Origin: Bdellovibrionales bacterium | GTDB lineage: Bacteria; Bdellovibrionota; Bdellovibrionia; Bdellovibrionales; UBA840 | Direction: 5' to 3' | Assembly: GCA_037969075.1 (NCBI GenBank) | Contig: JBBKWS010000155.1 | Span: 1-35,429 of the forward strand | DNA length: 35,429 nucleotides | In this document: positions 15,001 to 18,000 of the stretch, in pieces | Layout: each line of letters opens with the position of its first letter | Position numbering within the stretch: position 1 is the stretch's first letter | Made by a program: the position numbers

Positions 15001-18000
15001 TGTCAGGTCAATCAATCTGCCTAAATTACTAAAGTGCCGCAGTGGGCGAGATAAAGCCCACTATATAGCTTAGATATGCTTATTAATGGCCTCAACGATG
15101 GCATCTTTTGATAAGTTACCAACCAATTGATCTACAGCTTTTCCGTCCTTGAATAGAATCATAGTAGGAATAGATCTGACGCCATATTTGGCTGCTGTAT
15201 TGGGGTTCTCATCCACGTTTACTTTTGCCACAACCACTTTTGCAGACATTTCGGTAGCAATCTCTTCCAATTTTGGCCCAAGAGCTCTACACGGCCCACA
15301 CCATTCTGCCCAAAAATCAACTAGAATAGTACCTTTATTAGCAGTCACTTCTGATTCAAAATTTGTATCCGTAACGGATTTTGTGTTGCCCATTTTAACT
15401 CCTTATTGCTTACAACATTATATCGGAATAACAGATGAAAGTCTAGACATGACTTTATGGTGTTTGTTGATCCAGACTGATTTTATAGGCATACTATATA
15501 CATGGATAAGAGTGATCTATTAATCATGATCGTAGAAGACGATATAAGCTTTGCGAAAGCCCTAAGAGCCGCTATCGAACAAGAAGGTTACCAAGTCAAA
15601 GTCTATTCTAACGCTCAGGATTGCATTCAACAGCATAAATTAAATCCACCAGATCTTCTTATCGTCGATTGCTTATTGCCAGGCATGCCAGGCGTTGAGA
15701 TGGTTATAAAAATTCATGCGGAAGATTCTAAAACTCCAACTATACTTATGAGTGGAATCTTTACAGACAAATCATTTGTCAAAGATGCCCTGACACAAAC
15801 AAATGCCTTAGGTTTTTTCAATAAGCCATTTGAGACTGCTGCTTTGATTCAACAGATTGATTCTATTTTACTAGAAAAAACAGGGATCAACATCCCTCCT
15901 CTTGATCAATTATATCAAAATTCTTCTTTAGGGCCCATAGAGGTTACCAATTTAATTACTTCTATTAGCTCAATTCATGGTCATCATTTACCAAAAGTAT
16001 TTTTGGCACTATTAAAATCACATGGCCAAACTATAATCGAATTGAAAGATGAGGAATCGAACAATATTTCAAGTATGCACTTTGCAAATGGTAAAATCGT
16101 TGAAGTAAAAATTGAAGACCCTAACTCGTATTTTGGCAGATTAATGGTTGAGAAAAACTTTCTGACGCCTGAAGAGTTAGAAACAGTACTTGCAAAACCC
16201 TCTAAAAAACGAATCGGAGAAAAACTAATTGATGAAAATTTAATTAGCCCTCATATGATTGACGCAGTTAACAGCGAGCAGATGTGTTTGCGGCTAGGAC
16301 GTTTAATTCGTGATACAAATTATGAATTAAAACTAACAACCGCCAGCAAAGTGGTTAGTAAGTCTTTTGTGGATAGCTCACTTTTAGTAAATTACATAGG
16401 CGACTGGTTTCGCTCTAAAATAGACCTTTCGTGGCTCAACAAGTTTTATACTTCCCACACTAACGCCTCATTTGTTACTGAAAAATCCCAAGCTTCACTG
16501 GTACAAAATCTACTTAAGCATCTTGATCAAACAGAACTTTCTGACCTATTTAAAGAATTTACTGCGGGCTCAAGCTTACAAAACTTACTAGATTCACACC
16601 CGCAACATACAGGAAATGTATTCTTATTAACCCATATGCTAACAGCTCTTAATTACCTGTATTTTGATCAAAATATGAAGTCTGACGAACAGTCCTTAAA
16701 ACTTGAGAGAGTAAAGCAGCTTTTAGAAGCTTCAGAAAAACAGGATCACTTTCAAATTTTAGGGATTACAAGAAGAGCAAAGTTGTCAGATATCAAAAAA
16801 TCCTTCCATGATTTAGCTAAAATATTTCATCCAGACAAACTTTCAAAAGCAGCAACGCCAGATGTAATAGCTGCCACAAAAGGTTTTTTCGCCAAGATCA
16901 CATTAGCCTATGAAACACTTAGTGATGCGCCCAAGAAAGAGCTGTACATGAAAGAACTAGAGACAGGACAGGCGCAGTTGAGGTTACAAGCCGAATCTCT
17001 TTTTGAAGAATCTAAGGATTTAATGGGACAACGTCAGTATGGTAGAGCACAAGAACTAATGAATGAAGCAGCGATCCTATGCCCTGCTACTTCTGAATTA
17101 AAACTACACCTACTATGGGTTGCTTTAGCACTTATATCACAAACTAAAGACACCTCTGGCTTAGCAAAAGTGAATGCTGACCTAAATGGAGTTCCGCCAG
17201 AAGATCGACATAACGCTACTTATTACTTCGTAAAAGGTCTGCTTCAAAAACAATTAGGGCAACTTGATCAAGCAAAGCATAACATTGCTCACGCAGTAAG
17301 TATTCAACCTGATTTTGTTGAAGCTAAACGTGAACTTAATATTTTAAATATTTCAGCAAAGTCTAATAATAAGCCTGTTGATCTTCTCAACGCTGACCTA
17401 AAGGATGTCGTTGGTTCTTTATTTAAAAAGAGGCGCTAACTCCCCTTTTTACTTGCATCAAAAAGGGCTTTTAAAAAATCTTTTTTTTCTGCATCAAGAG
17501 CTTTGTCTTCGTCTGTGTATGGCTCGGCTGCAATCTTATTAATGGCTGCCTGAATCTCTGAAGTATCAAAGTGAGTTCTTACGGATTTTGGCGGATTGGC
17601 AGTTAAAAAGTCATCATACTTTTTCTTTCGCGCAGTCACTTCGTCAAAAACCACTTTGTCAATCATAGGGGCCAACGCCTCCGCTTGTTCACCGTGTGAT
17701 TTAAGCACTTTAAGTTGTTCATCATTCAGTTTTTCTAAAGGATATCGCATACTACGAATTTTCTGAAGCGAAGCCTTTGCCGAAAATCCGCCAGCCTTCT
17801 CTAAAAATTCAAACAAGAGCCGATTGTTAATCGGACTTACTAAGAATAGATCGACTTTATTTAATTGTAATATCTCTTTATTGAGCGTTCCAGAACCAAG
17901 TAAGACAACCTTAGGGAAACCCTCATGTCGCCTGATAGCTTTTGAAATATCTAGACCACGGGTTCGCCGGATCATTTGAGACAACAATATTGCATCTGGT

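Follow-up and report, generated by a model that had tools for sequence, protein, structure and literature searches.

A receiver, PATAN, J and TPR domain protein of Bdellovibrionales as a possible signal-regulated, targeted J-protein

A single gene in the Bdellovibrionales DNA analysed here (the window, 35,429 nt, contig JBBKWS010000155.1) encodes a protein that combines, in one chain, a two-component receiver, a PATAN domain, an intact J domain with its HPD motif and TPR repeats. It is virtually certain that the architecture of this 645-aa protein, P0001, is real, and, judging from the structure model, the REC-PATAN-J-TPR order is no chance juxtaposition. The preferred reading, which is tentative and held at slightly less than even confidence, is that P0001 is a phospho-gated, PATAN-targeted class-C (type III) J-protein that loads the single DnaK onto the machine to which it is bound. 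The features of the locus are as follows.

15070..15393, minus strand: divergent thioredoxin gene, upstream (Pfam Thioredoxin, E 1.5e-35)
15502..17439, plus strand: whole gene P0001, REC-PATAN-J-TPR protein, 645 aa plus stop (ORF list, translation, Pfam, AlphaFold2)
15523..15858, plus strand: receiver (REC), residues 8-119 (Pfam, residue conservation, Foldseek)
15667-15669, plus strand: codon of the phospho-acceptor D56, within the receiver
15883..16371, plus strand: linker helices and PATAN (PatA_N/DUF4388) beta core with inserted alpha-clip, residues 128-290 (Pfam, relatives, Atlas, secondary structure)
16123..16305, plus strand: alpha-clip, residues 208-268, four helices with two 24-residue MshEN/GspE-N-like half-motifs at 210-233 and 237-260 (profile and structural matches)
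16375..16734, plus strand: helical subdomain with two short strands, residues 292-411 (AlphaFold2; family-specific)
16744..16947, plus strand: J domain, residues 415-482 (Pfam, own-genome scan, PDB matches)
16828-16836, plus strand: codons of HPD 443-445, within the J domain
16960..17376, plus strand: long connecting helix and TPR-like helical repeats, residues 487-625 (TPR matches below cut-off, model)
17377..17436, plus strand: C-terminal tail, residues 626-645, hydrophobic then polybasic, ending '...DLKDVVGSLFKKRR' (alignment, model)
17436..18137, minus strand: convergent neighbour P0195, 233 aa, pseudo-receiver, with a 4-nt overlap with P0001; a candidate associate only

The open reading frame at 15502..17439 begins with ATG and contains 0 internal stops, and the opposite strand is stop-rich. 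AlphaFold2 models the whole 645-aa chain with a mean pLDDT of 93.0 and a pTM of 0.85. The gene is present in one copy in the 2.5-Mb assembly, which is 90% complete. The ORF list, Pfam and AlphaFold2 agree with the survey's finding of one 645-aa frame with a receiver, a J domain with HPD and a TPR-like tail, and both motifs quoted there, LLIVDCLLPG (with D56) and IFHPDKL (with HPD 443-445), are found in the translation. The middle region of about 290 residues does lie between receiver and J domain as described; it consists of a PATAN domain, which has an MshEN-like alpha-clip, and then a helical subdomain. Database names for the family ('response regulator', 'CbpA', 'OmpR family') overlook this architecture.

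The receiver is intact, as had been proposed. Pfam Response_reg covers residues 8-119 (E 6.3e-22, 78.3 bits against a cut-off of 30.2), and the acid pocket D13/D14, the acceptor D56, S84 and K108-P109 are all present. These phosphorylation residues are conserved across 180 full-length relatives: D13 in 171, D14 in 161 (with E in 10 more), D56 in 175 (with E in the remaining 5), S/T84 in 179 and K108 in all 180. Five strand-helix units in the AlphaFold2 model make up the (beta-alpha)5 fold. Foldseek superimposes it on the Spo0F, PhoP and CheY receivers at TM(target) 0.83-0.94 and rmsd 1.1-2.6 A (for Spo0F 0.93 and 1.3 A), and many further receivers are matched. Regulation of the protein by receiver phosphorylation is, on balance, somewhat favoured.

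The region downstream of the receiver is a PATAN domain with an MshEN/GspE-N-like alpha-clip. PATAN begins near residue 157, and Pfam DUF4388 (PF14332) matches residues 163-232 of the query alone at 22.0 bits, below the cut-off of 25. The score is 25.8 bits once neighbouring in-frame stretches are included, and relatives score from 25.1 to 56.6 bits. The nearest Atlas clusters are PatA_N (score 0.84, a lead only), and the P0001 ORF holds the only PF14332 match in the genome. PATAN is a protein-interaction module, and cyanobacterial PATAN-REC regulators contact PilB1 and PilC, according to 10.1101/2021.06.11.447907; the same paper defines the alpha-clip as an insertion related to the start of the N1 domains of GspE/PilB. 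In P0001 four helices at 211-268 sit between strands as an insertion, both in the AlphaFold2 model and in secondary structure, and S249-P250-H251 and Q260 are almost invariant in the family.

A profile of the middle region matches PDB sequences of PilF (E 4.3e-8; 8pe0, 0.037), the N-domain of MshE (5htl, E 1.7e-3) and the N-domain of PilB. The best VIA-align match is 5htl_B, which superimposes 58 residues with an rmsd of 1.8 A (Z 4.0, 24% identity), followed by XpsE-N (Z 3.6) and PilF (Z 3.3), the rmsd ranging from 1.8 to 2.2 A and the Z values being low, for a small helical unit; Foldseek places 5htl_A seventh (E 0.5). MshE and PilF N-domains bind cyclic-di-GMP, and their chains top the structural search. 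The alpha-clip might therefore be an MshEN-type cyclic-di-GMP receptor that provides a second input beside phosphorylation, a proposal that is compatible with the preferred reading and is in itself improbable. The two half-motifs are separated by 3 residues, as compared with 5 in MshEN, and most members keep R/K, G, L, L and Q in the second, Q260 being present in 169/180. However, the relaxed form of the tandem MshEN motif RLGxx(L/V/I)(L/V/I)xxG(L/V/I)(L/V/I)xxxxLxxxLxxQ (both forms from PMC5013675) is satisfied by only 5/180 members. At the position of the Arg that stacks on guanine the first half-motif has F/Y, and its final Gln is missing; the second has Asn instead of Gly at position 10, and the family-invariant S-P-H falls outside the MshEN motif. 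The low Z scores also weigh against a receptor, as does Pfam T2SSE_N, which has no match at E <= 1.

The helical subdomain at 292-411 has no clear solved relative in VIA-align, where only weak winged-helix/RRE-like matches with Z 2-3.3 appear. Its identity of 0.21 makes it the least conserved part of the protein, decayed J regions aside.

The J domain, with its HPD motif intact as previously noted, is recognized by Pfam DnaJ (PF00226) at 415-482 (E 1.9e-12, 47.5 bits against a cut-off of 27.8) over profile positions 1-62 of 63. It matches the solved J domains of Sec63 (E 1e-9), E. coli DnaJ (5nro chain, 7.3e-6) and DNAJC3 (2y4t, 1.8e-5), and also DNAJA3. H443-P444-D445 lies between modelled helices at 428-442 and 453-474, and the 27 closest relatives all have HPD, K440 and F463. 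An assignment to class A/B DnaJ, which would call for a Gly/Phe region, C-terminal client-binding domains and, in class A, a zinc finger, was rejected, DnaJ_bact giving only 42.8 bits against a cut-off of 377.2 with positions 1-82 of 354 matched. The Pfam scan found no DnaJ-related family in the protein other than the J domain. Thus P0001 belongs to the class-C J-proteins, and the source name 'CbpA' misleads.

Downstream of the J domain, TPR matches in the query fall below cut-off (TPR_2 at 497-528, 24.9 bits against 27; TPR_8 at 572-604, 21.3 against 25.7). The AlphaFold2 model shows paired helices over 513-623, and TPR matches above cut-off occur in relatives. In the C-terminal tail D632 and F641 are shared by at least 90% of sequences, and across the family the tail terminates in G-x-[LF]-F-K-K-K. 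AlphaFold2 places a helix at 633-641 with lower confidence, and the tail may have a membrane or peptide-docking role.

Profile scans located the partner chaperones elsewhere in the genome, in line with the survey: a single DnaK (882 bits), encoded next to dnaJ, and a single GrpE. It is likely that the J domain works with this DnaK. With receiver and J domain both intact, and a gene context that points to no partner, P0001 might, on a literal reading of the survey's proposal, be a general stress co-chaperone that has no client of its own and whose receiver phosphorylation shifts total DnaK activity up or down. Such a role is highly improbable. Conserved interaction modules (PATAN, helical subdomain, TPR), as is typical for class-C J-proteins that are targeted, make up about 400 of the 645 residues, a canonical DnaJ and a CbpA-size J-protein are already encoded, and the protein persists in relatives after loss of the J domain. 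As to the upstream signal, no conserved kinase neighbour of the P0001 family was found, in agreement with the earlier statement that no partner kinase had been identified. The Hpt-HATPase kinase encoded near HPD-less members was not detected in this 90%-complete genome with that query; orphan kinases and three small Hpt proteins are encoded.

The homolog search returned 44 full-length proteins of 624-658 aa, query counted, at E <= 3.7e-60, so that the recurrence of this architecture holds. Precomputed Pfam labels, tallied by eye, place PF00072 in 43 of these, PF00226 in 30 and PF14332 in 31. An exhaustive search of 1.84 billion representatives gives 242 clusters at E <= 1e-30, and most of the 150 clusters listed are about 620-680 aa and align end to end with the query. 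The family thus comprises about 240 clusters at 50% identity. It occurs in nearly every sampled Bdellovibrionales genome, being present in 64 of the 68 sampled from families f1-f11.

The suspicion that the J domain is degenerate in part of the family is justified, and weak scoring is not the cause. HPD is retained in 120 of 180 full-length relatives and genuinely lost in 60, of which 51 form one clade (support 1.0) that includes Bdellovibrio bacteriovorus. The ancestral state is reconstructed as HPD-bearing. In HPD-bearing members no part is better conserved than the J domain, whose mean pairwise identity is 0.374 (receiver, 0.368); in HPD-less members the J region falls to 0.162, and the clade keeps the other domains (REC 0.357, PATAN 0.370, TPR 0.304, tail 0.398). 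Thus the J domain is dispensable in one lineage, B. bacteriovorus included, and the family can fulfil its core role without Hsp70 stimulation.

This pattern raises the alternative of a phospho-regulated scaffold in which REC, PATAN, TPR and tail do the essential work by protein-protein contacts or localisation, the accessory J domain only tunes turnover in some lineages, and DnaK is not central. In addition to the decay of the J region in the HPD-less clade, each sampled genome of family f2, to which the Bdellovibrio loci probably belong, has one copy of the gene, so that no paralogue that could substitute is seen there. Proteins of the REC-PATAN-TPR type without a J domain also exist, at the outgroup loci L069 and L075. 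However, the strong conservation of the J domain wherever HPD is kept, the HPD-bearing ancestor and the invariance of HPD, K440 and F463 among the closest relatives speak against it, and P0001 itself belongs to the HPD-bearing group. A scaffold is considered unlikely, although less so than the cyclic-di-GMP receptor.

Outside the order, PATAN-J-TPR proteins without a receiver are found at 12 outgroup loci, with PF14332 above cut-off in 11 and below it, at 20.4 bits, in L075. They belong to Myxococcota, Acidobacteriota, Thermodesulfobacteriota and other Bdellovibrionota, and are uncharacterised. Their C-terminal 230-450 residues are homologous to P0001 and have the same order of PATAN, J (HPD) and TPR; it should be noted that these loci were retrieved with an HPD-containing pattern, and the uniform presence of HPD is partly a result of selection. 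One Myxococcota locus, L064, encodes the full REC-PATAN-J-TPR protein. The PATAN-J-TPR core is older than the receiver, which, given how widespread the receiver-less form is, represents an added input. At L069 and L075 the PATAN-J-TPR gene is followed, one or two genes further downstream, by the separate J-less REC-PATAN-TPR gene, and the Bdellovibrionales protein thus looks like a fusion of two linked functions.

The recurrent neighbours of family loci are mreC, mreD, pbp2, rodA, trx, a kdsA-like gene and lptF/G. In 19 loci the genes for PBP2 and RodA are found upstream in the same orientation, in 14 that for MreC, and LptF/G is downstream in 26. The receiver-less L077, from another Bdellovibrionota lineage, is found in the same mreC-mreD-pbp2-rodA-trx context. 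This old linkage could mean that the protein regulates or aids cell-wall elongation or envelope biogenesis, an explanation that is as improbable as the cyclic-di-GMP receptor. An opposite-strand thioredoxin gene intervenes between the family gene and rodA, so the two do not share an operon. The neighbours are all housekeeping genes whose order may be simply inherited, and outgroup loci have other housekeeping neighbours. The linkage is also missing in the window, where efflux genes lie upstream, and in 10/10 HPD-less loci with upstream room. The thioredoxin gene itself is upstream in 26/37 HPD-bearing loci with room, plus the window, and its adjacency is probably just synteny.

On the other side of P0001, the P0195 product has a weak Response_reg match (E 8.8e-4) without an acceptor Asp, a variable linker and a conserved end '...ERKxFVxALFKK'. 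Of the 34 HPD-bearing loci with room, 27 have a P0195-type gene at this position, as against 0 of 10 HPD-less loci, and the family is found in 118/121 genomes of the order. No pilus, MglA or dnaK gene adjoins P0001 in the window, no such cluster is among the recurrent neighbours of 50 annotated family loci, and no such neighbour was seen in 13 outgroup loci. Gene context thus lends no support to a pilus target.

Among the closest known systems are two from cyanobacteria. PatA, PixG, PixE and LsiR are PATAN-REC regulators with no DNA-binding output that act by protein contacts (PMC5812497 and 10.1101/2021.06.11.447907). They share with P0001 a CheY-like receiver and a PATAN domain with the alpha-clip insertion. 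However, PatA-type regulators have two domains with PATAN first, whereas in P0001 REC comes first (8-119), PATAN second, and about 350 further residues follow, adding the helical subdomain, J domain, TPR repeats and basic tail. P0001 was accordingly not classed as a PatA-type response regulator, in which PATAN is N-terminal and the receiver C-terminal. In Nostoc punctiforme, active pilus motors work with DnaK1, DnaJ3 and GrpE (PMC9239167), and in Synechococcus elongatus UTEX 3055 DnaK1 of a DnaK1-DnaJ1-GrpE system binds both PixG (PATAN-REC) and PilB (PMC13710413). In these systems Hsp70, J-protein and GrpE serve a motility machine and not general folding. Regulator and J-protein are distinct polypeptides in these cyanobacteria, and their DnaK1 is a specialised paralogue; in P0001 the two form one chain, and the genome has a single DnaK. 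Of the J-proteins tied to cyanobacterial motility, Sll1384 presumably combines J and TPR.

Eukaryotic DNAJC3/p58IPK and DNAJC7 are likewise class-C proteins, in which TPR binds clients or partners and the J domain passes clients to Hsp70. Unlike P0001 they have TPR before J and neither a receiver nor PATAN, and the domains in common are no ground for deriving the two architectures from one ancestor. RssB and CpdR are receivers without a DNA-binding output whose phosphorylation state decides client delivery to ClpXP. They share with the proposed role of P0001 the logic of a receiver as adaptor for an ATP-driven protein-remodelling machine, but their clients go to a protease and they contain no J domain, and the sequence likeness to P0001 (RssB E 2e-10, CpdR 1.4e-10) is confined to the receiver.

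For the preferred reading, a phospho-gated J-protein targeted by PATAN, the following sequence of events is proposed. PATAN with its alpha-clip, together with the TPR repeats, would bind a specific client or machine, and the hydrophobic polybasic tail may keep the protein at the membrane. A kinase or phosphorelay would phosphorylate D56, altering domain packing and so gating target binding or exposure of the J domain, although the gating geometry is guesswork. The HPD loop would recruit ATP-bound DnaK, the only Hsp70 of the genome, and the J domain would trigger hydrolysis, so that DnaK clamps the client and then remodels, assembles or releases it, with GrpE resetting DnaK.

The leading candidate for the target, doubtful as it is and resting on analogy, is the type IV pilus or polarity machinery. 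A pilus-motor or cell-pole target is proposed because of what PATAN-REC regulators and DnaK/J-proteins do jointly in cyanobacteria; PilB/GspE-size and PilT-like ATPases are encoded in the genome. The fuller version, that a two-component signal decides when and where Hsp70 is loaded, the phosphorylated receiver freeing the J domain or the PATAN/TPR surface for DnaK to remodel a pilus or cell-pole complex, is similarly speculative. The original proposal of phospho-switched DnaK recruitment therefore stands in part: receiver residues, J domain with HPD, DnaK and GrpE are all available. It needs amendment in that the contacts of PATAN with PilB/PilC in cyanobacteria make a targeted output more probable than general chaperone action, the receiver is a later addition, and HPD is lost in a third of relatives. 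The statement that such an output is not studied holds for the REC-PATAN-J-TPR fusion, of which no study was found in the literature searched; experiments of 2022-2026 in cyanobacteria did connect its separate parts.

The receiver, PATAN and J-TPR segments of P0001 unite in one chain components that cyanobacteria keep separate around the type IV pilus motor. The fusion is independent genomic support for PATAN regulators and Hsp70 acting together. It carries this idea over to predatory bacteria, and the PATAN-J-TPR genes without a receiver carry it further, to Myxococcota and Acidobacteriota. If the preferred reading is true, 'signal-targeted chaperoning' would constitute a class of post-translational outputs of two-component signalling, among the few that act on proteostasis machinery and not on transcription, second messengers or motors, and Bdellovibrio proper, in losing the J domain, would have rewired this chaperone control. 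A near-universal family with the J domain lost in one Bdellovibrionales lineage and kept in others is a natural experiment. Thus phospho-gating of DnaK stimulation, the partner of PATAN-TPR and the change in Bdellovibrio proper are directly testable.

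The REC-PATAN-J-TPR gene and its immediate neighbours in the window, together with the Pfam matches of its product, are as follows.

Genes and Pfam domain matches at the REC-PATAN-J-TPR locus
15070-15393, minus strand: thioredoxin gene, divergent
15502..17439, plus strand: REC-PATAN-J-TPR gene, one 645-aa ORF with an ATG start; other strand closed
Residues 8-119: Response_reg, 78.3 bits (cut-off 30.2)
Residues 163-232: DUF4388, 22.0 bits (below the cut-off of 25)
Residues 415-482: DnaJ, 47.5 bits (cut-off 27.8)
Residues 497-528: TPR_2, 24.9 bits (below the cut-off of 27)
Residues 572-604: TPR_8, 21.3 bits (below the cut-off of 25.7)
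17436-18137, minus strand: convergent 233-aa gene (P0195), 4-nt overlap

The receiver and HPD motifs quoted in the survey's finding are present in the translated sequence. NCBIfam gave receiver and J-domain matches only, all far under the equivalog cut-offs (DnaJ_bact scores 42.8 vs a cut-off of 377.2, over model positions 1-82 of 354), and therefore the protein is not a canonical DnaJ, nor is it one of the regulators already named. A reading as a transcription factor was ruled out, a DNA-binding domain being absent from the Pfam matches and from the structural model. Promoter-like sites show no excess (11 vs 10.5 in shuffled sequence), and no terminator-like site was found between the gene and P0195. 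A 124-aa ORF (15149-15523, plus strand) overlaps the thioredoxin gene on the opposite strand and reaches the start of the REC-PATAN-J-TPR gene; it recurs there in just 3 loci and is unlikely to be a gene. In the filter applied to the neighbours, this ORF took the place of the window's thioredoxin gene.

The homolog counts of the survey were closely reproduced: 44 proteins of full length were recovered at E <= 3.7e-60. When 1.84 billion representatives were searched exhaustively with HMMER, 242 clusters reached E <= 1e-30; of the 150 that were listed, most are ~620-680 aa long and align with the query over its whole length. A profile built from 27 sequences was run against 301 genomes of the phylum (E <= 1e-30), of which 72 had a match. 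The coded taxon families f1 to f11 are nearly saturated, with 64 of 68 genomes positive (f2 32/35, f3 17/18, f7 6/6, f1 2/2, and 1/1 each in f4, f5, f6, f8, f9, f10 and f11), and at the same threshold there is no match in f12 (0/9), f13 (0/20), f15 (0/34), f16 (0/9), f19 (0/67), f22 (0/34) or f23 (0/12). The exception outside f1-f11 is f20 (7/14 genomes), where the matches cover the C-terminal part only (~381-627); the ORFs concerned are 346-511 aa long, most of them close to 480. Named records with the family come from Bdellovibrionales, Pseudobdellovibrionaceae, 'Oligoflexia' bins and cultured Bdellovibrio strains; B. bacteriovorus also has a family gene, labelled merely 'response regulator'.

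Genomes of f3 often carry two or three matches each, and the gene is single-copy in the window's genome. A weak match at contig C87 of the latter, a candidate REC-PATAN paralogue, proved to be a REC-HisKA-HATPase kinase; at G000:C87:21600-25000 (L104:2612-5939) the REC-HisKA-HATPase hybrid kinase has a secretin gene and one for a T2SSE-family ATPase beside it, in the same orientation. Three genomes of genus g21, family f7, have one in-frame stop (TAA or TAG) within the family match (G184:C5:179973-181904, G271:C16:187131-189053 and G238:C33:114644-116575), which might reflect a pseudogene, an error of sequencing, or a stop lying upstream inside the reported frame.

The protein was modeled over its full chain with AlphaFold2 on a 140-sequence alignment (pLDDT 93.0, pTM 0.85).

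Parts of the 645-aa protein in the AlphaFold2 model
Residues 7-124: receiver
Residues 133-153: two linker helices
Residues 157-203 and 273-280: PATAN beta core, split by the alpha-clip
Residues 211-268: alpha-clip, a four-helix insertion
Residues 292-411: helical subdomain and two short strands
Residues 416-482: J domain
Residues 476-509: long helix
Residues 513-623: TPR-like paired helices
Residues 633-641: short terminal helix

In a Foldseek search with the full model all rows shown are receiver-containing chains, and the long alignments with PorX and NtrX have an rmsd above 20 A; therefore the receiver alone was matched, and residues 128-412 were for that reason folded on their own (pLDDT 90.7). 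With this middle-region model Foldseek gave no match at E <= 0.001, and a wide structural search gave none at Z 5 or more. Within residues 128-412 structural neighbours were found for the helical insertion only, namely 5htl_B (Z 4.0, rmsd 1.8 A over 58 residues), XpsE-N (Z 3.6) and PilF (Z 3.3). For the PATAN beta core and the 292-411 subdomain these structural searches gave no clear relative of known structure.

The middle region is a PATAN domain. DUF4388 (PF14332) is described as the PATAN, or PatA N-terminal, domain (10.1101/2021.06.11.447907; PMC12448109); relatives score from 25.1 to 56.6 bits, well over the PF14332 cut-off, and the ORF is the sole PF14332 match in its genome. As a lead only, the neighbours of residues 128-412 in a language-model atlas are PatA_N clusters (score 0.84), and DnaJ also occurs in 30% and 13% of the members of these clusters. 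A middle-region profile, from an alignment of 49 loci, was searched against solved sequences and matched Thermus PilF (E 4.3e-8), the V. cholerae MshE N-domain, 5htl (E 1.7e-3), PilB N-termini (E 0.017) and the PilF c-di-GMP-binding domain (E 0.037). The helical insertion is the known alpha-clip of PATAN domains.

Conservation was assessed in 180 full-length members of 600-760 aa, the union of the homolog search and the listed members from the exhaustive search. The published MshEN motif for c-di-GMP, including its authors' relaxed form (PMC5013675), is not kept: the relaxed form is present in only 5 of the 180, and half-motif 1 of the family alpha-clip has F/Y at its start, without the Gln. 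Near-invariant and specific to the family is S249-P250-H251 (180, 178 and 178 of 180, respectively), and Q260 is found in 169/180. We read the alpha-clip as a putative partner-binding site, with nucleotide binding as a minority possibility.

The receiver is well kept among the same members, with D13 in 171/180, D14 in 161/180 (and E in 10 more), D56 in 175/180 (E in 5 more), S/T84 in 179/180 and K108 in 180/180. The J-domain HPD motif is present in 120 and lost in 60 of the 180, although the HPD-bearing share is perhaps overstated, because these are the best-scoring members and J similarity raises the score. In a midpoint-rooted FastTree tree of the 180 members the ancestral state reconstructs as HPD-bearing, and six changes suffice. 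A single clade with support 1.0 holds 51 of the 60 HPD-less members, including P0120, the closest representative to cultured Bdellovibrio (71-73% identical to four Bdellovibrio loci). The protein of locus L046 has no J domain by Pfam.

Mean pairwise identity per domain, HPD-bearing vs HPD-less members
REC: 0.368 vs 0.357
PATAN: 0.284 vs 0.370
Helical subdomain: 0.212 vs 0.240
J region: 0.374 vs 0.162
TPR: 0.286 vs 0.304
Tail: 0.357 vs 0.398

The J region is thus strongly constrained in proteins with HPD, including that of the window, and decays in those without it, whereas the other domains of the HPD-less members are maintained. This bears out the earlier doubt that the J domain may be degenerate in part of the family. 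Among solved J domains the J region matches Sec63 (1e-9; the long loop that follows HPD is shared), E. coli DnaJ in 5nro (7.3e-6) and DNAJC3 (1.8e-5). Residues 405-645, used as query in a word-indexed search, gave 7 proteins, 6 of them apparent family fragments (41-52% identity) and one a weak J-TPR match. The window's genome has six J-domain ORFs, and the DnaK, DnaJ and GrpE that the survey placed in it were found again as one true DnaK (882 bits) adjoining dnaJ, and one GrpE.

PATAN-J-TPR proteins without a receiver are encoded at loci from other phyla; the sources include a 'Deltaproteobacteria' bin, Holophagales, other Acidobacteriota, Chloracidobacterium and Myxococcaceae, together with a Bdellovibrionales bin (L077, 486 aa). 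The full REC-PATAN-J-TPR order is found in one Myxococcota protein (L064). HPD is present in 13/13 annotated outgroup proteins, a uniformity partly due to selection, as HPD was part of one of the two patterns used to fetch the loci. At two loci, L069 (metagenomic bin) and L075 (Myxococcaceae bin), a separate REC-PATAN-TPR gene (L069:2986-6192, 1069 aa; L075:9130-11649, 840 aa) lies on the same strand one or two genes downstream of PATAN-J-TPR. The Bdellovibrionales protein thus has the look of two linked functions merged into one. The PATAN-J-TPR core is older than the receiver.

In the window lptF/G and dprA lie downstream of the gene and an efflux pair upstream. Gene context was compared in 50 full-length loci, 39 HPD-bearing and 11 HPD-less. 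The convergent 233-aa gene is found in 27/34 HPD-bearing loci with room for it and in 0/10 HPD-less loci, and upstream thioredoxin in 26/37 HPD-bearing loci plus the window, vs 0/10. Over all 50 loci, PBP2 and RodA genes are upstream in 19 and MreC in 14, and downstream are a KdsA-like gene in 22 and LptF/G in 26. Receiver-less L077 has the same mreC-mreD-pbp2-rodA-trx context, and this housekeeping block may simply be inherited. HPD-less genes have different surroundings: in Bdellovibrio proper (L040:884-7400, with equivalent stretches in L046, L047 and L050) the genes nearby encode a CheY-like receiver, an Hpt-HATPase kinase, a FecR-domain protein and a HAMP-SpoIIE phosphatase, a candidate set of signalling partners for the HPD-less clade. 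A search of the window's genome with this Hpt-HATPase kinase as query did not find it. Pilus, mglA and dnaK genes are absent from beside the gene in the window, from the recurrent neighbours of the 50 family loci and from the 13 outgroup loci annotated; therefore the context does not identify the target, in agreement with the survey, to which the neighbours gave no clue.

P0195 is a pseudo-receiver without the acceptor Asp. Its linker varies, whereas its end, '...ERKxFVxALFKK', is conserved and resembles the REC-PATAN-J-TPR family end '...DLKDVVGxLFKKK'. Its family is found in 118/121 genomes of the order; in Bdellovibrio-like genomes the relative is longer and lies ~60 kb from the REC-PATAN-J-TPR-family gene. 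Complex prediction with the whole protein and P0195 scored 0.00 in both runs, which is uninformative on binding either way. The C-termini of both convergent genes (17377-17436 and 17439-17500) are hydrophobic then polybasic ('...GxLFKKK' and '...FVxALFKK'), and this common motif of the two families could be a membrane-targeting or docking peptide.

Other genes of the window were also seen. A cyclic-nucleotide-binding domain fused to EAL (5231-6424; cNMP_binding 6-87, EAL 146-380), possibly a cNMP-controlled c-di-GMP phosphodiesterase, has a subtilase (S8) protease gene on either side (3669-5051 and 6595-8505). At 28407-31442 and 32463-34526, polyphosphate kinase 1 is followed by a Ppx/GppA phosphatase, with a membrane H+-pyrophosphatase nearby.

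The survey had not found the fusion studied, and our literature search likewise returned no receiver-J or PATAN-J study; a 2006 response-regulator census and a 2006 PATAN paper, either of which may include the architecture, lay outside it. The individual domains are already known, as is the logic of class-C J-proteins. What is new to print, as far as we could search, is the combination, together with its near-universal presence in one order and the natural loss of the J domain.

We infer every functional step of the mechanism proposed here. The protein would be a class-C J-protein with targeting as well as gating: a client would be held by PATAN and TPR, the J domain would load the cell's only DnaK onto it, and the receiver, phosphorylated on D56, would gate the process. 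The hydrophobic, polybasic tail may serve to position the protein at the membrane. The main counter-argument is the J-less clade, which shows that REC-PATAN-TPR has a role even without the J domain. As to the target, PATAN-REC regulators are reported to bind PilB1 and PilC (10.1101/2021.06.11.447907), DnaK1, DnaJ3 and GrpE to work with active pilus motors (PMC9239167), and DnaK1 to bind PixG and PilB (PMC13710413). The M. xanthus PATAN proteins MXAN_3211 and MXAN_4965 appear as candidates in an SgmX study, which did not follow them up. The window's genome encodes PilB/GspE-size and PilT-like ATPases. By analogy with these systems, the leading target of the proposed DnaK loading would be the type IV pilus or a cell-pole apparatus.
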